Positions 5,125-47,643 are shown, counted from the stretch's first letter. The stretch: 64,000 bases of DNA from Bacteroidota bacterium (GCA_003250475.1 QKGI01000065.1:15240-79239); one strand, 5' to 3'. Translations and numbers: made by a program. Notes: a model not told the origin generated them from the sequence alone.

Positions 5125-7394
5125 AATACTGTCAACAGGGTCTTTTGAAGGTCGGCATCACATGATGAGGGACCTGTCATGATCTCAAAATCACCCGGTT
5201 CAACCACATATTTCATGTCAATATTATGAAATGCCAGTTTGTCGGGTGTAATCTCAAAGGATACCTTTCGTGTTTCACCGGGCTTAAGTGATATACGTGC
5301 AAAGCCTTTCAACTCCTTCACCGGTCTTGTAACGCTGCTTATAAGGTCTCTGATATATAGCTGTACAATTTCATCACCTGCCATCTTTCCGGTATTTGTT
5401 ACCTCCACCATCACACGGGCAGCTTCTCCTTTCTTTATTTTGTTCTTTTTGAGGACCGGTTTTCCATAGTTGAACTCTGTATAACTTAACCCGAAGCCGA
5501 AGCAGAAAAGAGGATTTACATCCTGGGATATGTAGTCCATATACTGGGCGCTTGGTTTGTGATTATAATATAGCGGCAACTGTCCTGCCGACTTCGGGAA
5601 GGTTATAGTAAGCTTTCCTGAAGGATTCACTTCACCGAAGATGATGTCAGCTGCAGCGTTTCCGGTCTCCTGTCCCATATACCATCCTTCGATTATTGCA
5701 GGTACCTTTTCTGTAAGACTGTTTATGGCCAGCGGGCGTCCGTTCATAAGGTAAAGCACGACAGGTTTGTTAAGGGCAGTGATTGCTTCCGCCAGCTCAT
5801 TCTGTTCGCCGAAGAGGTCAAGGGTCATGTTATCACCGATATGGTTTTTTGCCCATGCTTCACGGCAGAGATGTTCATTCTCTCCCAGGGCAAGTATGAT
5901 GACATCAGCGCCTGAAGCAACTTTCACCGCTTCCCTGATGAGTTTGAGGTTCTCCTCACGGGAGGCAAACTTTATCTCATCATATTTCCAGTTGAAATAA
6001 CTGCCTGTAGTGTTTATCGTCAGTCTGCAGCCCTGGGCAAAGAGCACCTCGGTGCCGTTGCCGGCCCTTGTTCTTATGCCATCAAGCAGGCTCGTCTTCT
6101 CATATGGCTCCCCGGAGTAGCCCCCGAACCACAGGTCTTTGGCGCAGGGTCCTATTACGGCTATCTTCCTGTATGTTCCCCTTTTTAAGGGGAGAAGGTT
6201 CTCATTCTTCAGCAACACTATCGATTCATGGGCTGCCTGCAAAGCCATCTTCCTGTGCGACAATGATTTGCTGACGGCGATTGCATTCTTCTCCTCAACA
6301 AAGGGATTTTCAAACAATCCGAGGCTGAACTTGAATGCCAGGACCTGCTCTACTGCTTTGTCGATATCCTCCTTCCTGATCTTTCTTTTTCTTACCAGGT
6401 CGGGGAGTATCCGGTACATGTTACCCTGCGGGAATTCATACTGTACTCCTGCGTTGAAAGCTGTTGCCGCAGCTTCCGTTGCGTCGCCGCATACAAAATG
6501 TTTGTTAAACAGCTGGTCAATGCCATAATAGTCTGACACGATCATTCCCTTGTAACCCCACTCGTTACGCAACAGATCTTTTAACAGCCACCTGTTGGCA
6601 TGTGACGGTACACCGTCCACCTCATTATAGGAGGGCATGACGGAGACCGGTCTGGCATGGTCGATACACATCTTAAACGGAGGCATATGGTAGTCGCGTA
6701 ATACCCGCATGGAGTAGTTGGCAGGGCCCTGGTTCAGCCCGCCCTCCGACTCGCCATGACCAGCAAGGTGTTTCAGTGTGGCAGCCACGTTGTTGTTCCT
6801 GACTATGCCTGTATCACTTCCCTGCAGGCCCTTTACGGCTGCTATTGAGAGCATACCGTTGAGATAGGGATCCTCACCGTAGGTCTCTTCGGTCCTTCCC
6901 CATCTTGGATCACGGCATACGTCTATTACAGGGGTTAGTGCATGATGTGTGCCACGGGATCTCATCTCATGAGCTACTGTGCTGTATACTTTTTCAAACA
7001 GTTTTGTATCCCATGAACATGCCAGCCCGATAGCCTGGGGGAAGACAGTGGATTCTGGTCTCATCATCCCATGCTGACCCTCATCGACAAAGAGAGCCGG
7101 TATGCCCAGCCTGGTCTCTTCAACAAGGTATTTCTGGATGGTGTTACGCATCCTGACTGTATCCCTGATGCCGAAGGGCGCGGGATGAACAGAATGGCAC
7201 CCCTTGCCAAAGATATCTTTCATCATGACAGGGTCGTCGAAGATCTCCGGCTTGAAATCCTCTACACCACCGTTCCATAGTCCCATGAGCTGAGCACATT
7301 TCTCTTCCATGGTCATGCGTGTCATAAGGTCGTCCACCCTTTTCCTGACAGAGAGGGAGGCGTCTTTATACGGTACTTTTGCTGATTGTCTCAT
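5121..7394 (-). CDS. GH3 beta-xylosidase/beta-glucosidase (BglX-like), no signal peptide
   Basis: 757 aa. GH3 motifs GRTEETYGEDPYL, KHLAGHGESEGG and GMIVSDYYG (nucleophile Asp). The N-terminus MRQSAKVPYKDASLSVRK is not signal-like. Confidence 0.85.
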   Translation of the reverse strand: MRQSAKVPYKDASLSVRKRVDDLMTRMTMEEKCAQLMGLWNGGVEDFKPEIFDDPVMMKDIFGKGCHSVHPAPFGIRDTVRMRNTIQKYLVEETRLGIPALFVDEGQHGMMRPESTVFPQAIGLACSWDTKLFEKVYSTVAHEMRSRGTHHALTPVIDVCRDPRWGRTEETYGEDPYLNGMLSIAAVKGLQGSDTGIVRNNNVAATLKHLAGHGESEGGLNQGPANYSMRVLRDYHMPPFKMCIDHARPVSVMPSYNEVDGVPSHANRWLLKDLLRNEWGYKGMIVSDYYGIDQLFNKHFVCGDATEAAATAFNAGVQYEFPQGNMYRILPDLVRKRKIRKEDIDKAVEQVLAFKFSLGLFENPFVEEKNAIAVSKSLSHRKMALQAAHESIVLLKNENLLPLKRGTYRKIAVIGPCAKDLWFGGYSGEPYEKTSLLDGIRTRAGNGTEVLFAQGCRLTINTTGSYFNWKYDEIKFASREENLKLIREAVKVASGADVIILALGENEHLCREAWAKNHIGDNMTLDLFGEQNELAEAITALNKPVVLYLMNGRPLAINSLTEKVPAIIEGWYMGQETGNAAADIIFGEVNPSGKLTITFPKSAGQLPLYYNHKPSAQYMDYISQDVNPLFCFGFGLSYTEFNYGKPVLKKNKIKKGEAARVMVEVTNTGKMAGDEIVQLYIRDLISSVTRPVKELKGFARISLKPGETRKVSFEITPDKLAFHNIDMKYVVEPGDFEIMTGPSSCDADLQKTLLTVL

Positions 7395-35199: not shown

Positions 35200-36465
35200 T
35201 TATTCTTCATTGTTTATCTCCGCTCTTTGCGGTATCTGTCCGTTATCCCGTTTTCTAATCTCTTCCTTTACTATAGACCTGATCGGCGGGATCAGGAAGG
35301 CTCCCAGTCCCAGGGCGGCAATACTGCTGCCTGAGATGATGAAAGCATTACCTATGCCTATAGTGTCAGCTACATACCCTGTTGCCAGAAGACCTATCAT
35401 TGCCGGTAACAGGGTTATGCTGGAGTAAAGAGAGAAGACCCTTCCAAGGGCTGCCGGTTTGACCATTGTCTGCAGAACCACTGTGAAGGATCCGGAGTAT
35501 ATAGTGAATGTTACTCCTCCGATGGCAGTTATGGCTGCAAACAATGCAAAACCGGAGGACGGGAGTATCCCGGAAAAGAGGAACGTCAGTCCCAGTATCA
35601 TGTACATAAGGTTAATGAGAACTACCTTATAGTTGTTAAGGCGTTTATGTCCTATGATGGCTCCCCCGGCAAACATGCCAATGCCCCAGGCTATCTCGAC
35701 AATGCTCATCATGTATGTTGTTCCGTTGAAATGCTGCAGTGTCATGAGCGGAAACAAGGCTGCAACAGGCATGATGAAGAACATAGCCGAAAGTGCAAGT
35801 ATAAAAAGCCATAATAGTCCCGGCTTGCTGTAAATTTCTTTTAAACCCTCCATCAGTTCTCTCACCAGGTTCGGGCTCTCTATGTTCTTTTTTTCAGGAT
35901 CGGGGATACGTACCATAAGCAGTGTTATGACTGCTATTATGGCACCGGCAACATCGATCAGGAGGATCCACTGCAACTCAAACAGGCTTATCAGCAGCGC
36001 TGCCAGGGCCGGGCTGGCTACGGTGCTGACCGACTGTATCATGTTGTTTATACCGGCTATCTTCATCAGTTTATCCTTAGGGGCAATAAGAGGCACCGAG
36101 GCCTGCATTGCCGGGACATGGAAAGCCATTCCTGCAGAACGCATCACAAGAAGTATGTATATGTAGAAGATCTTTGCCTCGCTGAGCCAGAACAGGGCGA
36201 CCATCGCCAGTGTGCAGAAAGCGATAAACAGATCGGAAAAAATCATTGTCCACTTGCGCTTCCAGCGGTCAACAAAGACACCCGTGAAAAGTCCCAGTAC
36301 CATCTGGGGAAGGAGAGAAGCTATAGTAGCATAGGCAAGTACTTCGGCTGATCCTGTCTCAACACTCAACCAGAAGATAACGGCATAGCCAACCACATAG
36401 CTGCTCAGTGTTGAGGCCAGCTGGCCGCTGAAAATAATGGTAAATACTCTCTTCCAGTCCTTCAT
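35200..36465 (-). CDS. MFS transporter (efflux-type, 12 TMS)
   Basis: ORF 35200..36480. The ATG at 36465 gives MKDWKRVFTIIFSGQLAS. Hydrophobic throughout, with a VDRWKRK loop motif typical of MFS. Confidence 0.75.
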   Translation of the reverse strand: MKDWKRVFTIIFSGQLASTLSSYVVGYAVIFWLSVETGSAEVLAYATIASLLPQMVLGLFTGVFVDRWKRKWTMIFSDLFIAFCTLAMVALFWLSEAKIFYIYILLVMRSAGMAFHVPAMQASVPLIAPKDKLMKIAGINNMIQSVSTVASPALAALLISLFELQWILLIDVAGAIIAVITLLMVRIPDPEKKNIESPNLVRELMEGLKEIYSKPGLLWLFILALSAMFFIMPVAALFPLMTLQHFNGTTYMMSIVEIAWGIGMFAGGAIIGHKRLNNYKVVLINLMYMILGLTFLFSGILPSSGFALFAAITAIGGVTFTIYSGSFTVVLQTMVKPAALGRVFSLYSSITLLPAMIGLLATGYVADTIGIGNAFIISGSSIAALGLGAFLIPPIRSIVKEEIRKRDNGQIPQRAEINNEE

Positions 36466-36477
36466 GATCCAAAGCAA

Positions 36478-36485
36478 CAAAGATA
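36478..36485 (-). promoter_or_regulatory. Candidate -7 box (TATCTTTG on minus strand) for the MFS gene
   Basis: Matches TAnnTTTG, 13 nt upstream of the ATG at 36465. Confidence 0.35.
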
Positions 36486-36665
36486 TTCCTGAATAAGTTT
36501 ATTGCACCGCTCAAAATTAGGGTTTTGATTTCAAACCCGGGATGAGAATAAGGCACGGTAAGCCTGTCAGTGGTTCAAAATCCCTTTTTTCAGGGAGGCT
36601 GAGCTGAACCGGTCTGAGCCCGGTCAGCTAAATAATTATTCCTGACAGCCAATAGCCGATTGACT

Positions 36666-36710
36666 GAATATGCCGGCGAATTACAGTTTTCGCCGGCATA
36701 TTCTCATTTT
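36666..36710. terminator. Strong hairpin downstream of the six-gene exported-protein operon
   Basis: GAATATGCCGGCGAA-ttacagtt-TTCGCCGGCATATTC, a 15-bp perfect stem. The T tract (TCATTTT) is on the plus strand only, so the strand of action is ambiguous. Confidence 0.55.
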
Positions 36711-36771: not shown

Positions 36772-37803
36772 TTAATCAAGCGGAAGATGTAAACTGCTGA
36801 GATCAAGTTCACTGAGCAGTCTGTAAACATAGTAATAGCCGTCACCCCTGCGCAGGCAATCGTTCATCTTACTCCTTACCACCTGCATGGCAGGGACCTC
36901 CATGATGATTATCTGTATTGCTGACCGTGGCAGGTTCCTGTTCCAATAGTCAGGGTCAGGCCTCATCACCGGCGTATCATTTTTCACAGAACCGATCCTG
37001 GAGATGCTTTCCGTGTTGCCCATATAGGCATATGAATCTTTTTCAGCTTCGGAAAACCTGTTCAACTCACCTGTCAGCAGAGGAACCATAACATCTGACT
37101 GAGCCTTATCGGGCATGAGTCTCCAGTAATCGATCATCAACCGGAATACCTCGCGGATCGTCACCTGTTCCCAGTAGCCCGGCCGGTCTGCATTGAATAT
37201 CACGATATTATCCCCGTAACGGTCTATCCCGGGACTGATATGCTCCTTTACTCCCGGCTGAAAAAAAAGCTCTTTAAGGGCAATGGTCGCTCTATGCATG
37301 CTGTTTTCGTTAAAGGCCGGGTTGGTGGGATTGTATGCGTTGCTGTAGTCTGAAACGTTGAAGCCGCTGCTGCAGAACTTGTCTGTCCTGTTCACACTGA
37401 ACCGCCATTGAGGTGGTTCGACCGTCCATTGCGTCTCCTTTCCGTTGCGCATGTTCCACGTTCTGAAATAGAAGCATACCGTTGAAGTGACGCCATAACC
37501 ATACCTGGAGTTACAGCTTCCTCCGCCGAGGTCACATACCCCGTCAAAGCCTTTGTTTTCTTTCAGCACCGGTAACACACGGAATATCTGAACAAGCTTT
37601 TCCAGGGTCTTCAATGATTCTTCAGATTCGAAATCAGAGATATTGCATGATTTGCCATAAAGGTCTGGTCCCTGTCCGTTCAGAGGATTCCTGACTATTT
37701 TAAAAGTCCCGGGCTTGTCAGTCAGCAGTTCTTTATCCTGTGCGGGAGCTGCCTGAAAAAGAGCCATGAATAATACCGGTATAAAAATGTTCAGTTGTTT
37801 CAT
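36772..37803 (-). CDS. Exported hypothetical protein, paralogue A (last gene of the orphan operon)
   Basis: ORF 36772..37824. The ATG at 37803 gives MKQLNIFIPVLFMALFQAAPAQ (Q-rule signal peptide). Shares PGTF.I, EPP.W, PGID.Y, RP.YW..VT..E.F and NRNLPRS.IQ blocks with the upstream gene. Confidence 0.7.
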   Translation of the reverse strand: MKQLNIFIPVLFMALFQAAPAQDKELLTDKPGTFKIVRNPLNGQGPDLYGKSCNISDFESEESLKTLEKLVQIFRVLPVLKENKGFDGVCDLGGGSCNSRYGYGVTSTVCFYFRTWNMRNGKETQWTVEPPQWRFSVNRTDKFCSSGFNVSDYSNAYNPTNPAFNENSMHRATIALKELFFQPGVKEHISPGIDRYGDNIVIFNADRPGYWEQVTIREVFRLMIDYWRLMPDKAQSDVMVPLLTGELNRFSEAEKDSYAYMGNTESISRIGSVKNDTPVMRPDPDYWNRNLPRSAIQIIIMEVPAMQVVRSKMNDCLRRGDGYYYVYRLLSELDLSSLHLPLD

Positions 37804-37853
37804 TAACAGGTTGATTAGCTTCAATATCAGTTATATCTCGATGAAAGGCATCT

Positions 37854-38837
37854 TCAAAGGCCAATAAGTCCGGACAGGTTTCGTATGTCTGTCATGCCAA
37901 AGGAGAGCTCAAAGCGGGTGAGATCACATCCGCTGCCTGTGCCTTTCCTGCGATGTTCCAGGCATTCGTCCATAGTTTGTCTCATGTATTTCTTGTTCTG
38001 AACGGACGAGAACCACAAGAACTGGATAGTCGATCTCGGAAGATTCCTGTTCAGGTATTCAGGATTTACCTTCATTATTCGCGGGAAGATACTATCCTGT
38101 CCCCCGTATCCGTGTGATGCTGAGACACGCGAGAGTCCGCCGCCGAGATATGCTGGTTTCTGCCTGTCGGAAACAGGTATAGCATCCCATTCCTGATCAA
38201 GGAACTGCTTGTTATATGAGGCGGCTATTTCATCTTTCTCCTTCGCGGCAAATTCCCTGGCTGCCATAAAGGCTTCCTCCACCGTTACAGGTAACCAGTA
38301 CGGAGGCCGTTCCGGGTCATAAATGATCCAGCCTTCACCGTCATACACATCAATCCCGGGCTCAACGGTTGTCTTTCTCAGTGGCACCGCAAAGTATCCG
38401 TGGGCGCTGTCAAAGCCCTCGGTCCAGCCGGCCACCATATCATTTGTGTAGAGTGACCACGAAGGAGGCTCAATTGTATTGAACACAACCTTACCCTCTT
38501 TGTTAAAGAAGAACGAACAGAACTCGAATGCTATCCGTGCCGGTACTCCATACCACTCTTTGCCTTTGCATGTCATAGACATGGTATGTATTCTTGCCCT
38601 TCCGTTAAAGCCTTTTATGTCAGCCAGGACAGGATTTTCCCTTACAATAGCTATCACCTCCCTTATTTTTTCAAGGTTGGATGCCACATCTGCTTTTGTA
38701 AAGCCGCACTCAGCCATAGTGTAATCTGTCCTTCCCAGTATTTCGAAGGTTCCGGGCCTCTGCGAAAGGTCCTCCTGGGCTGCTGCCCGGAAGGTGAAAA
38801 GGGTCAGGGCTGAAATTATAACAAGATATTTTTTCAT
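37854..38837 (-). CDS. Exported hypothetical protein, paralogue B
   Basis: ORF 37854..38861. The ATG at 38837 gives MKKYLVIISALTLFTFRAAAQ. An alternative ATG at 38861 forms an ATGA overlap with the upstream stop. Confidence 0.7.
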   Translation of the reverse strand: MKKYLVIISALTLFTFRAAAQEDLSQRPGTFEILGRTDYTMAECGFTKADVASNLEKIREVIAIVRENPVLADIKGFNGRARIHTMSMTCKGKEWYGVPARIAFEFCSFFFNKEGKVVFNTIEPPSWSLYTNDMVAGWTEGFDSAHGYFAVPLRKTTVEPGIDVYDGEGWIIYDPERPPYWLPVTVEEAFMAAREFAAKEKDEIAASYNKQFLDQEWDAIPVSDRQKPAYLGGGLSRVSASHGYGGQDSIFPRIMKVNPEYLNRNLPRSTIQFLWFSSVQNKKYMRQTMDECLEHRRKGTGSGCDLTRFELSFGMTDIRNLSGLIGL

Positions 38838-38857
38838 GGTTTCTGTCTCTTTCAAAG

Positions 38858-40012
38858 TCATTCCCTGGTCAATGTAAAGTCAATTGTCACAGTAGTCTTT
38901 TCATTGCCCTGCGACACGTCTTTAGTTTCATTCATGCTCAGCACCTTATCTGCAGCTGTACCCTGGTAAGGACCAAAAACAGCGGTAAAGGGAACATCAA
39001 TACTTTTTGTTTTTGTGTCAGGAGGCTCATCTTCGTTCCCGCCCGTACAGGGACCGTCTACTTTCTTTTCCGTGGTGATCTTCATGGGCCCTTTTTCAGA
39101 GGTGGCCTTGACTGTCAGAAGAAAGCTCCCGTCATCGAGGAAGGTGATTCTGATTCTTGCATCGGAGACCTGTACCCCTCCTGAGATACTTTCATTAGAT
39201 AAGCCTTCCACCTTCGCTTCCGACTCCTTCGTCTCCGTTATCCGGGCAAAGCCCCTGTTGCCATCCTTGCATACATAGCATGGGTTACTTGTCACGGTAG
39301 TGTATTTCTCCTTCAGGTCATACGTCACAGTGCCCGAAGTCAGGGCCAGGTCCTCCTTCATAAGTTCCCACCTCAGTGTCGAATTGCTTTCTGTTTCAAC
39401 ATCCGTGACGATCATACCTGCATGACAGGGCGTCGAAGAGGAGGTTGATTCTTCCCGATCGCTTTTTACTTCGATGTTAACAGGACCGGTATAAGGGCAG
39501 ATCTCATGCTTCTTAAACTCGTCGACCAGTCTTTTTACAGGGGGTATAGATCCGTCTCCCGTCACGTCGGCTGCCGGGAAGGTCTCCGTGAAATCAGCCA
39601 GTATCTCACCTTCGCTGTTGGCACATGTCACCGTAGCAGTGACAGTCTCCGGTGAGTTGATGTACATGCAGTATTTTACGGCAAGATCAGGATTGGTCAA
39701 ACCACCGGCGATTTTACTTATTATCGGTCCCACATCGCGATTGCCGAATTCAGCTGTACCCTGAAGACGTAATTCATCCATGCATAAATCTGCCGTTACC
39801 GGGTCAGTGACTCCGATACAGGGATAATTTCTTTCCATCTCACTGATAATATCAGAGAGAAAGATGTTGTTAATACCTTTTGACAGGTACAGGAGGTTGG
39901 TATCTGCAGCTCCCGCCCTGGCCAGAAGAAGCATCGTCTTTTCGCGCGACTGTGCCCCGACCCGGAGAGGGAGGAGCAGTATTAGCAGGATTAGAAGGCC
40001 GGGATGTTTCAT
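38858..40012 (-). CDS. Exported hypothetical protein (384 aa, Cys-containing, T/E/K-rich)
   Basis: Signal peptide MKHPGLLILLILLLPLRVGAQ. ATGA overlap with the upstream gene at 40009..40012. I see no recognisable domain. Confidence 0.7.
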   Translation of the reverse strand: MKHPGLLILLILLLPLRVGAQSREKTMLLLARAGAADTNLLYLSKGINNIFLSDIISEMERNYPCIGVTDPVTADLCMDELRLQGTAEFGNRDVGPIISKIAGGLTNPDLAVKYCMYINSPETVTATVTCANSEGEILADFTETFPAADVTGDGSIPPVKRLVDEFKKHEICPYTGPVNIEVKSDREESTSSSTPCHAGMIVTDVETESNSTLRWELMKEDLALTSGTVTYDLKEKYTTVTSNPCYVCKDGNRGFARITETKESEAKVEGLSNESISGGVQVSDARIRITFLDDGSFLLTVKATSEKGPMKITTEKKVDGPCTGGNEDEPPDTKTKSIDVPFTAVFGPYQGTAADKVLSMNETKDVSQGNEKTTVTIDFTLTRE

Positions 40013-40974
40013 CTGGTGAGTACATTACAGGAAGGGTACTTGCTCTTTATAATCTCAATCTCAGATTCCGGCACATCCGTATTTGTCAGCCCAAGCTCTG
40101 TGAGGTTGACGAGGTCATTAATAACAGGCAGGGTGGTCGTAAGCGGATTGTTGTCTGCATACAGCTTTCGGAGGCCAGGCAGGTGTGCTATACCTGAAGG
40201 CAATGAACGGATCATATTGTTAAAGATGCCCAGCGTATTCAGTCCGGGGTATTGATTGATCTCCCGCGGAAGAGTGGTCACGTAAACACCAAGATTAACA
40301 ATATATAATTCTTTAAGGGGATAGCCGGCGGCGTTTTTAAGGATTTCCTGCAGGTCAACCGGTACAGGATACTGGCTGCTGGTAATAATAAGGGTGCTGA
40401 CCGACTTATATAAAGGCATCATGTCTATTACCGCCTGGATACCCTGCATTGACATGTCTATCACCAATACTTCCAGTTCTTCCGCTACAAACGGAACCGG
40501 CTTCCGGGTCTCCTCCTCCCTGTATTCATTCACGATCTCTTCCCTGAGTGGTTCAGCCAGCAGGATATCAGCCCCTTCGCCTCCGGCTGCGGCTTTCCAT
40601 ATCTGGCTGTAGATATCCATTTTCTGGTCGACCATGGCCTCATTGATCTCTGCCAGCTCCTCAGCATCATTGGAAGCATTCTGACTATCCTGACTGCCGG
40701 AAGAAGAACCTGTGCCGGCTCCTGCGCTACTATTCAGCCGGCCTGGCCCCATCATCAGCATTTTTGCCAGTCGCCTGATCTCGGCATTGGCCTTTTCTGC
40801 AGATGCAGGATCATCCCAGTTGGTCGTCTGCCTGATCTTTGCCATCTGCTCTCTAATATCGGCGGCAGAGGTTTCTGTCTGTGCACCCGCCGTAACACAG
40901 AAGAATAGCAGGAGCACCATAAGTCCGGACTTCACCCCCATGACACAGCTCTTTTTTGTTGAAGAACAGTTCAT
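40009..40974 (-). CDS. Exported protein with C-terminal leucine-rich repeats
   Basis: 321 aa. Signal region ..GLMVLLLFFCVTAGAQ (possible lipobox LFFC). A S/G/N/Q-rich linker. The C-terminus carries LRR units (LNTLGIFNNMIRSLPSGIAHLPGLRKLYADNNPLTTTLPVINDLVNLTELGLTNTDV). TAATG 1-nt overlap with the upstream stop. An alternative start is at 40941. Confidence 0.7.
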   Translation of the reverse strand: MNCSSTKKSCVMGVKSGLMVLLLFFCVTAGAQTETSAADIREQMAKIRQTTNWDDPASAEKANAEIRRLAKMLMMGPGRLNSSAGAGTGSSSGSQDSQNASNDAEELAEINEAMVDQKMDIYSQIWKAAAGGEGADILLAEPLREEIVNEYREEETRKPVPFVAEELEVLVIDMSMQGIQAVIDMMPLYKSVSTLIITSSQYPVPVDLQEILKNAAGYPLKELYIVNLGVYVTTLPREINQYPGLNTLGIFNNMIRSLPSGIAHLPGLRKLYADNNPLTTTLPVINDLVNLTELGLTNTDVPESEIEIIKSKYPSCNVLTR

Positions 40975-41969
40975 TAATAGCTATCCTCAGGGTAATAGAG
41001 CTTGAAGCCGTATACCTCCTTTAACTTCCGGAGATAGTCGGCTATAGCTGAAAGACCGGCAATCTCCCGGCATTCCGGCGGAGTGGATATACCCGTCTGA
41101 AGCTTATTGGACTCATCCAATATTTCACCGTAGTTTTTATAATCGGGCAATGAAGCCTTAAGTATTTGCATATGTTGACGAAGGGCTCCCCTGTATCGTG
41201 GAGTGAACCTGTCACAGTACCTTACCTGCTCATTTTTAATAAGCAGCGCCAGGGAGTCCATCTGTTTTCCCTGTCCATAGTCAACACCGGCCATTGACGT
41301 TATTCCGGCATGCCAGTCATCTATCCTGTCGAGCATAGCCTGCCTTTCAGGGTCACCCTCCAGTGGAGAATAGAGATCCGCAATCCTCTGTTGTATTGAA
41401 GATATCTTATTCATGGCATTGGTACGGGCGTTCAATGACTCGTACAGCGATCTGGCATTTGCGCTTTTTGCCTGCCGGGCCGGGTCGGTCTCCGCAACAG
41501 CCATAGATTCTGTTGCATATGCCTCAGCATAGGCTTTTCTCCCGGCATCACTCATTTTTGAAAGGTTCTGGACTTCACCCATAGACATGTTGGTCTGTTG
41601 CTGCATCATTTTATTGGCCAGGGCCTGTTTCTCAGCTGCCGACATGTTTTTTGCGTTTTTCATCTTCTCCAGGTCTGCCTGCGAGATCCCGTACTGCTGT
41701 GACAGCTGTCTCATTGCCGTCTCCTGTGCTGTTGAGGCATTACTCTCCATAGTTGTGTTTTGCAGGCCGGTCAACATATCAATATCTGCCTGGATATCCT
41801 GCAAGATACCATCCACCCTGGCCTCAAATGCCTCTGCCTTTGCCCTTGTTACATTACATGAATCATCTGGCAGGACAGGGACCTTTGCCATATAACCGGC
41901 AGTCCTGTTTTGTGCCGATGTCACAATGGAAAAAGCTGCTGCAAGAAGGAATATGGCCGTTCTTTTCAT
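40974..41969 (-). CDS. Exported hypothetical protein (331 aa, helical, M/Q/A/N-rich)
   Basis: Signal peptide MKRTAIFLLAAAFSIVTSAQ. The composition suggests a coiled coil. I see no recognisable domain. Confidence 0.7.
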   Translation of the reverse strand: MKRTAIFLLAAAFSIVTSAQNRTAGYMAKVPVLPDDSCNVTRAKAEAFEARVDGILQDIQADIDMLTGLQNTTMESNASTAQETAMRQLSQQYGISQADLEKMKNAKNMSAAEKQALANKMMQQQTNMSMGEVQNLSKMSDAGRKAYAEAYATESMAVAETDPARQAKSANARSLYESLNARTNAMNKISSIQQRIADLYSPLEGDPERQAMLDRIDDWHAGITSMAGVDYGQGKQMDSLALLIKNEQVRYCDRFTPRYRGALRQHMQILKASLPDYKNYGEILDESNKLQTGISTPPECREIAGLSAIADYLRKLKEVYGFKLYYPEDSY

Positions 41970-41971
41970 AA

Positions 41972-43282
41972 TCAGAGCTTAATAAATTCAACCCTGCGGT
42001 TCAAAGCCTTGTTGGCGGGGGTATCATTCTGAGCTACAGGCTGGCTCTCACCCATACCATCCGATTCCAGCCTGGATGCTTCAATGCCGAAGGTCTTCAC
42101 AAGCTCGTTTTTCACTGAGGCACCTCTTCTCCTGGAGAGGTCCATGTTAGCAGCATCTGCACCGTCAGCATCGGTATGGCCAACAATTTTCACCCTTATG
42201 TCCGGATTTTCCTGGAGGACGGTGGCAATTTCCTTCAGGGTGCCATAAGACTCAGGCTTGACCACGTCCCTGTTGACATCAAAATATATCCCGTACGTAA
42301 CCAGTTTGCCTTCGGTTATAAGCTTATTACGTGTATCCGGTGCTCCTACAGCTATGCGTATATTGGATATCATAGCCGCACCGTATTCAAACCGCAGCCT
42401 GTCCGGCTTCACGCAGCCTGCAGGCAATGCCCTTGGAAGATCAATAATCTTGTTCTGATCCTGGTACAGGCGGATCCTTGTTTTCTGAACCCATATGGAA
42501 ATATGGTATTTCTGGTTCATTTTTTCCTTGTACTGGTCGCCCTCCACATAGCCGCTCAACTGTGCTTTACCGCAATCCTCACCATAGAACCAGGTATGAT
42601 ATCCCGGTCTGCCGAAATACTCTACTTTAAACTCGAATCCACCCTGGCCCGGAGCCGATCCGCCGTCCCATGCCCTGGCGTTTTTGGCCTGCATCAGCTT
42701 CATATGCCATCCTGACATCCCCTGGCCTTCAAGACCACCGATAGGAATAATATCGTATTCTATCGTATAATTTTCAGGTAATTTCAGCAACTCATCAGTC
42801 CAGACACACTGATTCATGACGAACTTCATCCAGTTACCGGGGAATAAGTTAGTGGTAACTACTTCGGCTGTCCCATTTGTGTTCCACAGGGCAGGGAAAT
42901 CGCCAACGGCATCCTGGCTGAAATCCTCATAAAAGATCACCTTTTCTCCCGGAATAAAGTCAAATCTGGAATAGCTTTCAAGTGATGCCTGCTGCTGCCC
43001 TGAAGTACCGGAGGGATTAGCATTCCCCTTCCCTTGGTTCTGGTCTGTTGAATTGTCCTGTCCGGTACCCTGGTTTGTCTTCCCGTTATTTTTCATGTCC
43101 GCGGTAATACTGTCCTCCACGGAATCAAGTACCTTATCTATTGCCTGGTCCGTCTTCTGGTTAAGCCTTCGGTTAACCTGCTGTTCAAGTTTCTTTTTGA
43201 AGTCTACCTTGATCTGACCCTGCACATTCATTGTCAGGCTTATCAAAACCAGGGCGATTAAAAATCTGATTATGGATCTCAT
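41972..43282 (-). CDS. OmpA-family protein: N/Q/G-rich linker + beta-rich domain + C-terminal OmpA/MotB peptidoglycan-binding domain
   Basis: 436 aa. Signal peptide ..LTMNVQGQ. FDFIPGEKVIFYEDF block. C-terminus VKIVGHTDADGADAANMDLSRRRGASVKNELV..NRRVEFIKL. Confidence 0.8.
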   Translation of the reverse strand: MRSIIRFLIALVLISLTMNVQGQIKVDFKKKLEQQVNRRLNQKTDQAIDKVLDSVEDSITADMKNNGKTNQGTGQDNSTDQNQGKGNANPSGTSGQQQASLESYSRFDFIPGEKVIFYEDFSQDAVGDFPALWNTNGTAEVVTTNLFPGNWMKFVMNQCVWTDELLKLPENYTIEYDIIPIGGLEGQGMSGWHMKLMQAKNARAWDGGSAPGQGGFEFKVEYFGRPGYHTWFYGEDCGKAQLSGYVEGDQYKEKMNQKYHISIWVQKTRIRLYQDQNKIIDLPRALPAGCVKPDRLRFEYGAAMISNIRIAVGAPDTRNKLITEGKLVTYGIYFDVNRDVVKPESYGTLKEIATVLQENPDIRVKIVGHTDADGADAANMDLSRRRGASVKNELVKTFGIEASRLESDGMGESQPVAQNDTPANKALNRRVEFIKL

Positions 43283-43441
43283 TCTGTAAAATTTTTAGTT
43301 TGGCGTTTAAACGGAGTTATACCAAAGTAAACCTACCAACAGATTTTGACTGTGTACTCCCCTTTTTTGGGGATTTTTCACTCAGGGAAATATCTTTCCA
43401 ATATCCCTGAAAAAGGGGAAGTCTGATAAACGAATATTAAT

Positions 43442-43449
43442 TAGGTTTG
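43442..43449 (+). promoter_or_regulatory. Candidate -7 box TAGGTTTG for the histidine kinase gene
   Basis: Matches TAnnTTTG, 18 nt upstream of the ATG at 43467. Confidence 0.3.
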
Positions 43450-43466
43450 TGTAATATTTTTCATTC

Positions 43467-45398
43467 ATGAAACGGGCCCAGAGCAGACTCTACTTTTTTA
43501 TTCCATTGATTATAATGTTTATGTGCATGCCCGGGCTTCAAGGCCAGGTGCCTGATTCAATTGAAGAAAAAATAAACTCCATCCTGTATGCCGCGCCTGT
43601 AACTAACAGGTCAGACCAGAAGGGGTTTGCTGACGATTCACTGATGATTGAATCTTTACTGTCAAACACCGAGAAATATCAGGCAATTAATTCAGATACG
43701 TCACTGTATTTTGCACAGACAGCACTGAGTCATTCGCTCCGGTATGGATCATTACCGTTGATTTCATGTTCCCTGCAGGCTATGGGAGACTATTATTTAA
43801 GCCACGAGATGTATCGTGAATCAATGGCCTATTACCTTAAGAGTCTGGCGATTGAGGAAAAAGCCGGCAATCAGGGACGTATGGCCGACCTGTATGATGA
43901 ACTGGGAACGGTCTATTATTATCTGGAGGTGTTTGACAAATCACTTGATTATAATCAGAAGGCTCTCAATATATTCAGGGAGATCGAAGATACCACAGGG
44001 ATTGCCAAGGTACTCAGTCACCTTGGCTCTCTTCACAGCTCCAGGGAGTTTTGTGAGGTGAGATCCAAAGCGGAGAAACTTATTGACTTTCAGACTGCGA
44101 TAGTCTATCATGAGCAATCGATACGATACTCGGCTATGACCGGTGACAACCGGAGCATAGCCAGGGGCAACCAGAACATTGCGTCAGTTTATAATAAGCT
44201 TGAGAAGCCGGGAGTAGCACTGATATATATCCGGAAGTCGCTCGATTATTACAGGAGCACCAATGACCCGGAAGGTACCCTCAGCGCATTGTTTACCCTT
44301 GGCAAGACCTACTACAGGCTTAAAGAATACAGTAAGGCCATTGATGCTTTCAGGGAGTCAGAAAAAATAGCCAGCGAGAGAAAACTGACAGGAGGTCTGC
44401 AATATCTCTATGAGGCCCTGGCTATGCCATACTACGATATCGGCGATTACAAAAATGCCTACAACACCTATATCAGGTATATGACCATCCGGGATTCTGT
44501 CTATAACGCTGAGAAATCGAAACAGATCATTGAGCTGGAAACTAAATACCAGAGTGAGATTAAGCAGAATGAGATTTTGAGGCTCAGGGCTGAGGAGAAG
44601 AGGAAGACAACGCTTCTCTATCTGCTGGCGGTGATAATCGTTCTGCTCGGTTTTTCCATTTACTATTATGTAAGGCTCCTCAGGAAGAACCGGATTATTG
44701 CTGAACAAAATCTTCAGATCAGGGAAGATAAAATCAAGGAACTGGAGAAAGAAAGACTTTATCTGGCGGCCAGGTCAGTCATTGAGGGTGAGGAGGCCGA
44801 GAGATCACGACTGGCCAGTGATCTTCATAATGGACTTGGCGGTTTATTGTCAGGAATAAGAATCAATCTCTCGTCAATGAAAGAAAATTCTGTAATCACG
44901 CATGACAATGTAAATGCATTCAATCATGCCCTGTCATTGCTCGACACATCCATCAGCGAGCTTCGCAGGATCGCTCACAATCTGATGCCGGAGACATTAA
45001 ACCATTATGGTTTAAAGACCGCTCTGGAAGATTTCTGCACGCAGGTTTCCCCCACAGGTAATCCGGAAATAAGCCTGCAGTTCTTCGGAGATGAGATTCG
45101 ATACACCAGGGAGCTGGAATTAACCATGTACAGGGCAGTTCAGGAGCTGGTGAATAATGCCCTGAAGTATTCGGAAGCAACCAGGATAAATGTGCAGCTG
45201 TTTTCGGAACCTAACAGACTGTCTGCCCAGGTGACCGATAATGGAAGAGGATTCGACAGCAGTGCGACAGAGAAAGGGAGGAAAGGCAAAGGCCTTGAAA
45301 ATATACGTGACAGGATAACGGCGCTTAACGGCAGGTTTGATATCTGGAGCGAACCAGGTCAGGGGACAGAGATAAGTGTTGAAATAGAAATTGAGTGA
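43467..45398 (+). CDS. TPR-repeat sensor histidine kinase (HisKA_3/NarX-type)
   Basis: 643 aa. Signal/anchor ..MPGLQGQ, about 8 TPR-like repeats and one TM segment (TTLLYLLAVIIVLLGFSIYYYV). H-box ERSRLASDLHNGLGG. HATPase blocks NALKYSEA, DNGRGF and GKGLENIRDR. Confidence 0.85.
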   Translation: MKRAQSRLYFFIPLIIMFMCMPGLQGQVPDSIEEKINSILYAAPVTNRSDQKGFADDSLMIESLLSNTEKYQAINSDTSLYFAQTALSHSLRYGSLPLISCSLQAMGDYYLSHEMYRESMAYYLKSLAIEEKAGNQGRMADLYDELGTVYYYLEVFDKSLDYNQKALNIFREIEDTTGIAKVLSHLGSLHSSREFCEVRSKAEKLIDFQTAIVYHEQSIRYSAMTGDNRSIARGNQNIASVYNKLEKPGVALIYIRKSLDYYRSTNDPEGTLSALFTLGKTYYRLKEYSKAIDAFRESEKIASERKLTGGLQYLYEALAMPYYDIGDYKNAYNTYIRYMTIRDSVYNAEKSKQIIELETKYQSEIKQNEILRLRAEEKRKTTLLYLLAVIIVLLGFSIYYYVRLLRKNRIIAEQNLQIREDKIKELEKERLYLAARSVIEGEEAERSRLASDLHNGLGGLLSGIRINLSSMKENSVITHDNVNAFNHALSLLDTSISELRRIAHNLMPETLNHYGLKTALEDFCTQVSPTGNPEISLQFFGDEIRYTRELELTMYRAVQELVNNALKYSEATRINVQLFSEPNRLSAQVTDNGRGFDSSATEKGRKGKGLENIRDRITALNGRFDIWSEPGQGTEISVEIEIE

Positions 45399-45400
45399 CT

Positions 45401-46045
45401 ATGACCGCAGATTATCCGGTTGTAAGCAAAAAGGTTCTGATAGTTGAGGATCATCCTATCGTTTCTGACAGCCTGCTGCGTCTCATCAATGAGTCGTTTG
45501 AAAACACATTATGTGTGCATGCCGCAACAGGGGCAAAGGGCCTGTCATATCTTAACGGAAATATCTTTGACATAATACTGCTCGACATTAATCTTCCTGA
45601 CATGTCAGGCATCGATTTCAGCATCCGGGCAAGATCAAGGTTCCCCGGATTGAAGATCCTTGTTGTTACATCACTGGCCCAGAGACATATAATCGAAAAG
45701 GCAGTCAGGGCAGGAGTGAAAGGGTTTGTTCTTAAGACTTCGGATATTAAAGATATTACCGAAGGTATAAAGAAGGTCATGGAGGGAGAAAACTATTTCG
45801 GGGCAGGAGTCAGGGAGATTACCTTCGGACATTCGGTAAGCGGCACTTCCGAACCGCTGATAACAAGGCGGGAGAGCGAAATACTAAGGCTCATTGCTGA
45901 CGGTTTTACAAACCAGGAGATAGCGGAGAGACTTTTCATCAGCACCTCCACCGTTGACAGCCACCGGAAGAATCTACTTGTGAAGTTCGATGCAAAAAAC
46001 ACTGCTGCTCTTGTAAAGACAGCGATCTCAAGGGGGATAATTTAG
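45401..46045 (+). CDS. NarL/LuxR-family response regulator
   Basis: The tracked ORF starts at the GTG at 45395. The ATG at 45401 gives MTADYPVVSKKVLIVEDHP. Receiver Asp in IILLDINLPDMSG. LuxR HTH LITRRESEILRLIADGFTNQEIAERLFISTSTVDSHRKNL. Confidence 0.9.
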   Translation: MTADYPVVSKKVLIVEDHPIVSDSLLRLINESFENTLCVHAATGAKGLSYLNGNIFDIILLDINLPDMSGIDFSIRARSRFPGLKILVVTSLAQRHIIEKAVRAGVKGFVLKTSDIKDITEGIKKVMEGENYFGAGVREITFGHSVSGTSEPLITRRESEILRLIADGFTNQEIAERLFISTSTVDSHRKNLLVKFDAKNTAALVKTAISRGII

Positions 46046-46131
46046 GTCTGAAGGTCTGAAGGTCTGGGGTCTGAAGGTCTGAGGTCTGGGGTCTGAGGTC
46101 TGAAGGTCTGAGGTCTGAAGGTCTCAAGGTC
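46045..46131. repeat. Microsatellite (GGTCTGA[A]/GGTCTGG)n, 11 units of 7-8 bp
   Basis: Reads ggtctgaa ggtctgaa ggtctgg ggtctgaa ggtctga ggtctgg ggtctga ggtctgaa ggtctga ggtctgaa ggtctcaa ggtc. The first G is the last base of the regulator's TAG stop. Confidence 0.9.
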
Positions 46132-46173
46132 ATGTCGGAGCGGGGCGGAGATCCCCGGCCGTAAGGTCGGGAC

Positions 46174-46238
46174 GGTCTTACGGTCTTGCAGTCTTGCGGT
46201 CTTGCAGTCTTGCAGTCTTGCAGTCGTGCAGTCTGAGG
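46174..46238. repeat. Microsatellite (GTCTTGCR)n, about 7 units of 8 bp
   Basis: Reads ggtcttac ggtcttgca gtcttgcg gtcttgca gtcttgca gtcttgca gtcgtgca gtctgagg. The same unit occurs once at 2106..2116. Confidence 0.9.
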
Positions 46239-46284
46239 ATGTGTTAAAAAACCCCGTTCATTTGTCCCGCTTTGTTTTTGTTAT

Positions 46285-46292
46285 TAAATTTG
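46285..46292 (+). promoter_or_regulatory. Candidate -7 box TAAATTTG for the DUF2851 gene
   Basis: Matches TAnnTTTG, 29 nt upstream of the ATG at 46321. Confidence 0.35.
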
Positions 46293-46320
46293 ATCAGCTG
46301 CATTTCTAAATACCCTGAAC

Positions 46321-47643
46321 ATGAAAGAGGAGTTTCTGCACTGGTTGTGGAAGAACCGGCTTTTTGATGCCGGCCGTCTGGGCAACGTGGAGACCGGACC
46401 TGTCGCGATAATCACCCCGGGGGACTATAACCGGGATTCGGGACCTGACTTTTTCAACTCCCGCCTGGTTATTGCCGGCACTGAATGGGCCGGTAACATC
46501 GAGATACATATCAACTCATCTGACTGGTATCGTCACGGGCACCATACCGATCATGCATACGATAACGTAATCCTTCACCTGGTGCACAACAACGATGCTG
46601 ACGTCTATACGGCATCAGGACGACGTCTTGTCACGATGCGGCTCGAATTTGATCCCTCGCTGTGGGATAACTATATTGATTTTATCAATAACCCCTCAGT
46701 TCTCTCCTGTTCCGGCCTTATTGACAAGGCTGACGGCTTTATGGTGAAGCACTGGCTGTGGTCTCTTGCCGTCGGGCGGCTGGAGAGGAAAAGCAACGAG
46801 ATCAGCGAAATGCTTGGGAAGACCGGCAACGACTGGGAGGAGACGCTCTACAGGCTTATCTCGCGGTACTTCGGCTTCAGGGTGAATACCGACCCGTTTG
46901 AAATGCTGGCCTCAAGACTACCGCTCAAGATAATCAGGAAGCACTCCGACAACCTTTTACAGGTGGAGGCTCTTCTCTTCGGCACTGCAGGTCTGCTTGA
47001 CGAGGCGCTTTTCAGAGAAGCTGTAAACGATGAATATTACCTTCTCCTGTTGCGGGAATTCAATATAATGCGTGCCAAGTACAGCCTGACACCTGTCGAC
47101 GGCTGGCTGTGGAAGTTCCACCGGTTGCGTCCGGCCAACTTTCCCACTGTCAGGCTTGCACAACTGGCAACACTCCTGGCGCACAGTGACGGCCTCTTTT
47201 CAAGGATACTTGAATGTCATAATGCAGGCAGCCTGAGAGCTCTGCTGAGCGTCACAACTTCAGGATACTGGAATAATCATTATCTCTTCGGCAAAGAGGT
47301 GCCTTTCAAGGCCGGCCGGGCGGGAAAACAATCGGTAGATCTGTTGATAATCAATGCTGCCGTTCCAGTGTTGTTCGTTTACGGCAAAGCAAAGCAGCAA
47401 CAGGAAATATGTGACACCGCGGTAGAAATACTTGACAGCCTGCCACCTGAAGATAACAGTGTTGTAAAAGATTTCACGGCAGCAGGGCTCATACCTGAGT
47501 CGGCCTTTGCCACCCAGGCGCTTCTGGAGCTGAGAACATTGTGGTGCAGATATCACAGATGCCTCGACTGCAGGATCGGGACTTCCCTGATTGGAATGGG
47601 ACACGGGATAAGGGGCTCGGGTTCGCTGCTGCTGGAGCCCTGA
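46321..47643 (+). CDS. DUF2851-family protein
   Basis: 440 aa. The N-terminus MKEEFLHWLWKNRLF..PGDYNRDSGPDFFNSRLVIAGTEWAGNIEIHINSSDWYRHGHHTDHAYDNVILHLV matches my memory of DUF2851. Confidence 0.7.
   Translation: MKEEFLHWLWKNRLFDAGRLGNVETGPVAIITPGDYNRDSGPDFFNSRLVIAGTEWAGNIEIHINSSDWYRHGHHTDHAYDNVILHLVHNNDADVYTASGRRLVTMRLEFDPSLWDNYIDFINNPSVLSCSGLIDKADGFMVKHWLWSLAVGRLERKSNEISEMLGKTGNDWEETLYRLISRYFGFRVNTDPFEMLASRLPLKIIRKHSDNLLQVEALLFGTAGLLDEALFREAVNDEYYLLLLREFNIMRAKYSLTPVDGWLWKFHRLRPANFPTVRLAQLATLLAHSDGLFSRILECHNAGSLRALLSVTTSGYWNNHYLFGKEVPFKAGRAGKQSVDLLIINAAVPVLFVYGKAKQQQEICDTAVEILDSLPPEDNSVVKDFTAAGLIPESAFATQALLELRTLWCRYHRCLDCRIGTSLIGMGHGIRGSGSLLLEP

Follow-up and report, generated by a model that had tools for sequence, protein, structure and literature searches.

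A conserved gene cluster of uncultured Bacteroidia that may encode a regulator-controlled, peptidoglycan-anchored periplasmic assembly

In a 64,000-nt stretch of DNA from a Bacteroidota bacterium (GCA_003250475.1, QKGI01000065.1:15240-79239; hereafter the window), positions 36772-43282 hold six minus-strand genes, g1 to g6, that are arranged head to tail and were analysed here together with an adjacent two-component system. A reading of the sequence by itself had described this region as a module to which no function could be assigned. That description held: the six-gene cluster proved to be conserved, and no known system matched it. On architectural and regulatory grounds, the cluster is proposed to encode a regulator-controlled, peptidoglycan-anchored periplasmic assembly of an undescribed kind. 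The chances that this proposal is correct are judged to be about even, and any one specific biochemical function assigned to the assembly would be improbable at best.

The sequence-only reading had placed six open reading frames (ORFs) in this interval, with a 184-bp divergent control region upstream and a 15-bp-stem hairpin downstream. All of these were recovered exactly where they had been placed (Table 1), as were the gene junctions: a 2-nt gap between g1 and g2, a 1-nt overlap (TAATG) between g2 and g3, 4-nt overlaps (ATGA) at both g3/g4 and g4/g5, and a gap before the last gene, first described only as short, of 29 nt. The gene spacing suggests that g1 to g6 are co-transcribed. The hairpin at 36666-36703, which has no T-run on the operon strand, probably marks the end of the transcription unit. 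An Rfam scan of the window yielded zero matches.

Conserved co-occurrence of the genes in related genomes had been named as a check on the first reading, and such co-occurrence was found. A scan of GTDB by motif and tblastn, with one genome per species, detected g4 relatives in 30 species, and hidden Markov models (HMMs) built from the window proteins were mapped onto 37 fetched loci, referred to below by numbers preceded by L. The order g1-g2-g3-g4-g5/6 recurred in the 30 species-level genomes and in metagenome contigs. In full, the core order reads g1, small variable genes, g2, g3, g4, an orphan gene encoding ~800 aa, and one to three copies of g5/6, and it persists across family-level lineages even where protein identity falls to 25-30%. 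Carriers are labelled Rikenellaceae/Rikenella, Bacteroidales (including UBA1458), Prolixibacteraceae, Draconibacterium, Mariniphaga, Marinilabiliaceae, Tangfeifania, and 'Odoribacter sp.'. A search of IMG/VR viral contigs detected no relatives of g4 or g5.

At the level of gene arrangement, the strongest single evidence for a functional unit is the overlap of g3 and g4. Of 40 junctions, 39 showed a 4-nt overlap of the g3 stop with the g4 start (38 ATGA, one GTGA); these two genes are almost always translationally coupled. This near-constant overlap suggests a stoichiometric g3:g4 complex. Across the fetched loci, g2 was located upstream of g3-g4 in 34 junctions. Parts of the cluster are also duplicated as modules, with four g3-g4 pairs in L001, three g2-g3-g4 triads in L026, and two separate g2-g3-g4-g5/6 sets in L024. 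The duplicated modules (g3-g4, g2-g3-g4, and g5/6) show low mutual identity.

Four of the six products are orphans. No match to g2, g4, g5, or g6 was found in Pfam, NCBIfam, PADLOC, or PHROGs. Homologue searches returned 217 clusters for g2, 103 for g4, and 296 for g5, all of them 'hypothetical' or unannotated and none with a Pfam domain; the homologues came from metagenomes and Bacteroidales metagenome-assembled genomes (MAGs). Sequence-profile searches of the PDB with the g4 family alignment, the g5/6 family alignment, and the N-terminal domain of g1 gave nothing. Together with structure searches for g4 and g5 (see below), these results agree with the initial claim that the orphans could not be placed in any characterised family.

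The g1 protein consists of a signal peptide, a Q/N/K-rich low-complexity segment (residues ~25-100), a middle domain (~105-320), and an OmpA-type domain (333-429). The OmpA/MotB-type module that had been read at its end was confirmed by Pfam (PF00691, E 4.5e-22; 78.7 bits vs a cut-off of 27.2) and, on this profile evidence, g1 is assigned an OmpA-type peptidoglycan-binding domain. Matches to OmpA, OprF, and YiaD domains in the PDB reached E 8e-21, and Pal sequences matched the same domain at E 2e-6 to 1e-4; resemblance to solved OmpA, OprF, YiaD, YfiB, Pal, and PomB proteins was confined to this region. The GHTD (368)...LSRRR (382) motif is complete in g1; we take the Asp and Arg of the family motif GHTD...N..LS..RA to be the peptidoglycan-contacting residues of OmpA/MotB proteins. 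All full-length NCBIfam cut-offs were missed (PorE, 61 vs 600 bits; YiaD, 118 vs 175 bits; Pal, 65 vs 125 bits). Because its signal peptide ends in NVQG↓Q and lacks a lipobox, g1 is not a Pal-type lipoprotein. The middle domain of ~220 residues is strongly conserved (motif FDFIPGEKVIF..DF...VGDFP..W) and gave weak DUF6250 matches in six of nine homologues (best E 5e-4), as well as two weak galectin matches. A concanavalin-like β-sandwich is the probable fold.

In g3, a conserved N-terminal segment is joined by a Gly/Ser linker to a C-terminal leucine-rich repeat (LRR) domain at residues ~165-318, which matched LRR_4 and LRR_14 in Pfam (LRR_4, 29.3 bits vs a cut-off of 27). The LRR domain had thus been read correctly, and its repeat count was revised from about four to ~6 in residues 165-318, of which ~4 are canonical; multiple stretches of this region matched solved LRR proteins. 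Its nearest solved relatives are Leptospira LIC11098, LIC12759, and LIC10831 (E 2e-31 to 2e-24). The start of g3 is ambiguous: an independent gene call on the identical contig L003 begins 11 codons later, and the true start may be this Met12 (40941), giving 310 aa. A start at Met12 would leave a 32-nt gap between g2 and g3 in place of the TAATG overlap, which is not kept in other loci.

Structures of g4 and g5 were modelled with AlphaFold2 and compared by Foldseek with the PDB (g4, g5) and BFVD (g5). The g4 model was confident (pLDDT 88, pTM 0.73) and comprises an N-terminal α/β domain (25-166) and a C-terminal β domain (175-382) with four strands of 17-23 residues and about eight shorter strands. 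Six Cys residues (C65, C172, C196, C245, C248, and C322) are invariant among 51 homologues. The top PDB matches were TolB and TolB-Pal complexes (E 3e-5, prob 0.98, TM-score 0.19-0.23). According to the model, the N-terminal domain would be TolB-N-like and the C-terminal half would not form a propeller.

Low-probability Foldseek matches of g4 to outer-membrane barrels, MACPF, and lipovitellin reflected its long β-hairpins and were rejected; g4 is not a membrane barrel, because its strands are polar and its C-terminus, TLTRE, lacks an aromatic end residue. A further match, 9n2d_B, belongs to the β-barrel assembly machinery (BAM) complex of F. johnsoniae (PMC12611786), and this lead was dropped since chain B could not be identified from the paper. 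BamP was likewise dropped as an analogue of g1, since the same paper (PMC12611786) calls it neither OmpA-like nor peptidoglycan-binding.

The Met/Gln/Ala-rich g2 contains three Cys residues (38, 252, and 300). It is presumably helical, an assumption retained from the sequence-only reading. The two last genes, g5 and g6, had been called paralogues, which is in line with their identity of 28% (E 3e-32), and they share invariant E, D, K, and R residues. Homologues of g5 begin at its Met9 (38837), where translation of g5 may also start. The g5 model was confident (pLDDT 90.5, pTM 0.84), and Foldseek found nothing significant for it in the PDB (best E 0.08, prob 0.2; Cj1090c, PelC, and CsgG) or in BFVD (best E 0.039). 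A profile-profile comparison of g4 with g5/6 (prob 4%) indicated that these families are unrelated. An exhaustive g5/6 profile search detected 226 clusters among 1.84 billion representatives, and nearly all family members are at most ~390 aa long without an extra domain. Ten remote members contained no Pfam domain above the gathering score, with one weak sub-threshold match.

One of the remote members, of 535 aa, is encoded at L038:9977-11608 (contig Ga0068270_10021) and matched the family HMM at E 8e-33. Its gene neighbours encode proteins with S-layer homology (SLH) domains, Big_5, RCC1/WD40, and tetratricopeptide repeat (TPR) proteins, and an AraC regulator; the SLH domains presumably indicate a host outside the Bacteroidota. 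This protein implies that the g5/6 domain is not confined to the operon nor, probably, to the phylum. A second remote g5-like protein is encoded by a solitary gene elsewhere than in this cluster.

All six N-termini were read as Sec signal peptides for signal peptidase I (SPI) with Gln at +1, and the predicted cleavage sites of g1 to g6 are VQG↓Q, TSA↓Q, AGA↓Q, VGA↓Q, AAA↓Q, and APA↓Q. The signal peptides first reported thus stood for every product. The Gln residue was not retained as a mark of the operon: this Q-rule holds for most SPI substrates in Bacteroidetes (PMC5837995), so it points to the phylum and to the pathway of export rather than to these six genes in particular. A hydrophobicity check found no internal hydrophobic segment in any of the six products, no lipobox Cys or outer-membrane barrel signature occurred among them, and no T9SS (type IX secretion system) C-terminal sorting domain (Por_Secre_tail or related) was matched in Pfam or NCBIfam at E ≤ 1. 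Of the initial placement at the periplasm and outer membrane, the part that stood is that of exported soluble products; with no membrane anchor in any of the six, association with the outer membrane found no support.

Directly upstream of g1, and divergent from it, lie genes for a sensor histidine kinase and a NarL/LuxR-type response regulator. The kinase consists of a signal/transmembrane segment, a TPR region (~30-380; Pfam TPR_12), a transmembrane segment (~381-399), and the HisKA_3 and HATPase_c domains, with hydrophobic peaks at residues 8 and 381. Its TPR domain is predicted to be periplasmic because it lies between the two membrane segments. The regulator gene overlaps the kinase stop by 4 nt, and its product matched PF00072 (E 8.5e-20) and PF00196 (E 4.6e-18). 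Full-length kinase orthologues, 35-72% identical including the TPR part, adjoin the cluster in distant lineages, at seven fetched loci (L007, L009, L015 on the other side, L018, L020, L023, and L032, the last with the kinase only, at a contig edge). With a truncated kinase next to g1 in L039 and with the window itself, this amounts to nine loci in all. Regulator orthologues (41-77% identical) were detected in six other loci.

Alignment of the intergenic regions between kinase and g1 genes revealed a near-palindrome, TCCCC-TTTTT-N-GGGGA. It was found in this region in L007, L009, L018, L020, L023, and L032, and two copies occur in the divergent control region of the window. Allowing at most one mismatch, the window held four matches against 0.48 ± 0.70 expected. 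In ~623 kb of loci plus the window, 15 of 27 matches were intergenic and directly upstream of g1, and 12 of these 15 fell in kinase-g1 divergent regions. The motif was present at seven of eight kinase-adjacent g1 promoters, as compared to three of 19 others (Fisher p = 9e-4), and it was conserved across lineages in which g4 is only ~30% identical. From its position and conservation, we regard TCCCC-T5-N-GGGGA as the candidate operator to which the LuxR-type regulator would bind. A copy with one mismatch was found 102 bp upstream of the gene for a major facilitator superfamily (MFS) transporter downstream of the operon, and an exact copy (L032:17666-17679) lies 121 bp upstream of an MFS orthologue; the transporter may be an additional member of the regulon.

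Several further observations concern the control region and the motif. In L005, L008, L011, L013, L014, and L034, which are otherwise syntenic, a DUF2851 gene directly abuts g1; in comparison with window region 43467-47643, the kinase/regulator pair behaves as an insertion or deletion between these two genes. All of these six loci except L008 also lack the promoter motif. A short palindrome, CGTTTAAACG, is located at 43304-43313 in the window, 22-31 bp upstream of the g1 start codon. An exact motif match, CCCCTTTTTAAGGG, at 6178-6191 lies inside a 757-aa ORF (5121-7394) distant from the operon and is probably due to chance. In a promoter scan, the Bacteroidetes -7 box (TAnnTTTG) was matched exactly on the kinase side only. 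Scans for sigma-70 promoters are uninformative for Bacteroidota.

Table 1. Position, strand and description of the features discussed. Coordinates refer to the window unless a locus is given.
Feature	Position	Strand	Description
g1	41972-43282	-	436 aa, exported anchor protein
g2	40974-41969	-	331 aa, exported Met/Gln/Ala-rich protein, unannotated family
g3	40009-40974	-	321 aa, exported, C-terminal LRR domain
g4	38858-40012	-	384 aa, exported two-domain protein
g5	37854-38861	-	335 aa, exported g5/6-family protein
g6	36772-37824	-	350 aa, g5 paralogue
Divergent control region between g1 and kinase gene	43283-43466		184 bp, two near-palindrome copies
Near-palindrome C[AC]CC-TTTTT-N-[AG]GGG	43359-43372	+	divergent control region
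Near-palindrome C[AC]CC-TTTTT-N-[AG]GGG	43405-43418	-	divergent control region
Sensor histidine kinase gene	43467-45398	+	TPR, HisKA_3, HATPase_c
NarL/LuxR-type response regulator gene	45395-46045	+	REC and GerE helix-turn-helix domains
15-bp-stem hairpin	36666-36703	-	69 nt downstream of g6
One-mismatch motif copy	36582-36595	+	102 bp upstream of MFS gene
MFS transporter gene	35200-36480	-	downstream of operon; Pfam MFS_1/MFS_3
~800-aa orphan	L009:12369-14846		
~800-aa orphan	L011:11160-13529		
~800-aa orphan	L018:12627-15077		
~800-aa orphan	L032:14386-16875		
~800-aa orphan	L008:11174-13720		

By Pfam, the flanking genes in the window include the MFS transporter, the kinase, the regulator, and a DUF2851 gene. 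Two others, named by reading of the ORF sequences, we take to be homologues of pyrF and prfA. In related loci, accessory genes for exported proteins vary (DUF3108-like, MORN_2, 150-aa fibronectin type III (FN3)-like, papain-family peptidase, and TPR proteins). The window lacks the exported ~800-aa orphan, which in most close relatives is encoded either between g4 and g5/6 or after them. Its N-terminal half is β-rich and its centre Gly/Ala-rich; it also contains a Pro-rich linker and, at its C-terminus, a conserved domain that ends in ...VDS[VLI][KS]T[KN]Y, and it belongs to no Pfam family. An exported Peptidase_C1 (papain-family) protein is encoded between g1 and g2 at L008:5970-7047 and L009:5891-6958; in L008 the gene is split into two ORFs, which may be due to a frameshift or an assembly error. 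An enlarged form of the cluster, L001:169-21167, comprises four LRR-g4 pairs, three g2 and three g5/6 genes, and a Big_1 protein. It also holds an RCC1-repeat protein whose C-terminus, by eye, reads like a T9SS tail, although it has no Pfam match.

In the proposed mechanism, the TPR domain of the kinase would sense a protein or peptide cue in the periplasm, and the phosphorylated regulator would bind TCCCC-T5-N-GGGGA and activate both divergent promoters. The six genes would then be expressed as a single unit, and their products would form a soluble periplasmic assembly on the cell wall. In this assembly, g1 would act as the tether to peptidoglycan, and its lectin-like middle domain may touch glycan. 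The LRR protein g3 and g4, whose Cys-rich β domain is probably disulphide-bonded, would form a 1:1 heterodimer as the ligand-binding unit. The Met/Gln-rich and probably helical g2 could serve as an adaptor or chaperone-like partner of g3-g4, and g5 and g6 could be effector or enzymatic subunits. The most likely role would be an inducible maintenance or protection of the envelope through protein binding. In a more specific version, an inducible recognition system, diversifying LRR-g4 heterodimers held on g1 would capture foreign or damaged periplasmic proteins and pass them to g5/g6 enzymes, with the TPR kinase sensing the same ligands. This version is considered improbable; if true, it would represent an LRR-based surveillance module in the bacterial periplasm, built almost wholly from families without known relatives.

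A number of observations weigh against the proposed assembly. The kinase/regulator pair is absent from the closest syntenic relatives, i.e. the six loci in which DUF2851 abuts g1, and was not found within 10 kb in 19 of 27 scored g1 promoters. Since most loci lack it next to the cluster, its control of the cluster cannot be universal, and its absence from the closest relatives marks the pair as a recurrent yet dispensable neighbour. Control by the adjacent two-component system, as suggested in the sequence-only reading, is supported by more than adjacency, namely by the orthologous pairs and the conserved palindrome, with the qualification that the pair is missing beside the cluster in most loci. 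Remote g5-like genes without g1-g4 imply that g5/6 need not act in a complex. Cluster content is variable, with the ~800-aa orphan and the accessory genes occurring elsewhere and not in the window. The TM-score of only ~0.22 limits the likeness of g4 to TolB, at most, to the TolB N-terminal domain. Finally, all 30 carriers are uncultured Bacteroidia MAGs.

Alternative explanations were weighed against the same evidence. The cluster might be a periplasmic recognition or immunity island, in which LRR-g4 pairs and g5/6 neutralise incoming toxins such as effectors of the type VI secretion system (T6SS), bacteriocins, or phage lysins. Divergence of the duplicated modules (g3-g4 up to fourfold, g2-g3-g4 up to threefold, one to three g5/6) would broaden specificity, LRR and TPR domains bind proteins, and all products are assigned to the periplasm, where such toxins act. 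MORN_2 proteins, which we take to be of the YwqK type annotated elsewhere as antitoxin or immunity proteins, are among the accessory genes. However, known immunity islands are far less conserved in their gene order and content, and at 320-440 aa the proteins would be large for an immunity function. Genes for toxins, the T6SS, recombinases, or mobile elements were not seen in the neighbourhoods inspected, PADLOC gave a generic MotB-domain match only, and the cluster has its own sensor kinase and peptidoglycan anchor. An immunity island is therefore regarded as unlikely.

Also unlikely, and to the same degree, is that the products build an adhesin, an S-layer-like coat, or a similar structure on the cell surface or outside the cell, for which they would leave the periplasm by an unrecognised route. 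The Leptospira relatives of the g3 LRR domain, the lectin-like domain of g1, the remote g5-like protein encoded among SLH cell-wall-anchored proteins, and the RCC1-repeat protein with a T9SS-like tail inside the L001 cluster would be consistent with such a structure. Evidence against it is the lack of a lipobox, T9SS C-terminal domain, or β-barrel signature in all six products, and the OmpA-type domain of g1, which binds peptidoglycan beneath the outer membrane.

Two explanations were rated as very improbable. A Tol-Pal-like tether, in which g4 would bind the OmpA-like g1 in the way that TolB binds Pal and so coordinate outer membrane and cell wall in growth or division, would account for the Foldseek matches of g4 and the Pal matches of g1. 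In both cases, a domain of TolB-N-like α/β type is encoded together with an OmpA/Pal-type peptidoglycan-binding protein. In contrast to Tol-Pal, the g4 C-terminal half, with its strands of 17-23 residues, forms no six-bladed propeller, and g1 is a non-lipoprotein with an extra lectin-like domain. No tolQ, tolR, or tolA was found among the flanking genes of the window, nor any Tol-type Pfam domain in the gene tables of the related loci, in which other flanking ORFs are unannotated. Moreover, the cluster adds LRR, Met-rich, and g5/6 proteins and, unlike the housekeeping Tol-Pal system, is sporadic, regulator-controlled, and limited to a few lineages of Bacteroidia. The other explanation, that no integrated system exists and that the genes are a syntenic run of unrelated, co-transcribed periplasmic proteins, would fit the varying accessory content and the g5-like genes that occur alone elsewhere, but not a core order kept at such low identity, the near-universal g3/g4 ATGA coupling, duplication of the module as a unit, and conservation of regulator and motif with the cluster.

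Comparison with other known systems gave further negative results. Pfam and NCBIfam scans of the six products detected no TonB-dependent receptor or SusD domain and, together with the lack of T9SS domains, bore out the initial claim that Sus and T9SS signatures are missing. Pilin and von Willebrand factor A (vWA) domains, as expected for type V pili or Bat proteins, were absent from the Pfam scan of the six products, which was not a dedicated test. In PADLOC-DB, only ZorB (MotB-domain) models matched the OmpA domain of g1, and g3 matched only JetB, non-significantly (E 0.025). Membership could be established for domains only (OmpA_C, LRR, and the NarL-type two-component system); at the level of systems it failed in every case tested (Tol-Pal, Pal/YiaD lipoproteins, T9SS cargo, Sus, and PADLOC defence). 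No published description or family model of the cluster was found. Four of six families without an annotated relative, and one confident model without a structural neighbour, place the cluster outside every known kind of system, a rating based on the lack of matches and on genomes of uncultured organisms. Bacteroidia envelopes depart from the proteobacterial model in many respects, such as the T9SS, an extended BAM complex, and the Q-rule, and to these the cluster adds a conserved and regulated set of periplasmic proteins without a description in any database. Conserved clusters of unknown genes are not rare in MAG dark matter.

The analysis added to the sequence-only reading the wide conservation of the cluster, the coupling of g3 to g4, the duplication of modules, a candidate operator, and the possible link to the MFS gene. 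Four new protein families were gained, one of them with a confident model and no structural relative, as well as a near-obligate LRR-partner pair and a sensor-regulator-operator-operon unit that could be transferred to a tractable Bacteroidota host. If the function should be envelope protection or protein recognition, the cluster would represent a new type of periplasmic system. Otherwise, its description still takes several hundred clusters labelled 'hypothetical' out of the dark matter of Bacteroidia from anaerobic sediments, freshwater, and digesters.

Individual components do have counterparts in characterised systems. The C-terminal domain of g1 matches those of all the OmpA-family anchors compared (PorE of the T9SS, TssL/TagL of the T6SS, flagellar MotY/PomB, and the lipoproteins YiaD/YfiB) and likely has the same role of fixing an assembly to the wall, but the N-terminal two-thirds of g1 are unrelated, full-length scores are far below cut-offs, and the partner genes of those machines are absent. 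PelC/CsgG/LpoB-type α/β domains, which share a fold class with the TolB N-terminal domain, were the top, non-significant Foldseek matches of g5 (prob ≤ 0.21, query-normalised TM-score ≤ 0.16); g5 differs from them in being a non-lipoprotein of more than twice their size. An LRR domain is shared between g3 and the Leptospira LRR proteins, from which g3 is distinguished by its ~6 repeats, its own N-terminal segment, the Gly/Ser linker, and the coupling to g4. TPR-sensing kinases are exemplified by FimS of P. gingivalis. The kinase and regulator of the window have the domain architecture of NarL/LuxR-type systems in which a HisKA_3 kinase carries an extracytoplasmic TPR sensor and, like these, are divergently encoded, probably autoregulated, and associated with a candidate inverted-repeat operator, whereas the palindrome TCCCC-T5-N-GGGGA and the target operon are peculiar to this cluster.

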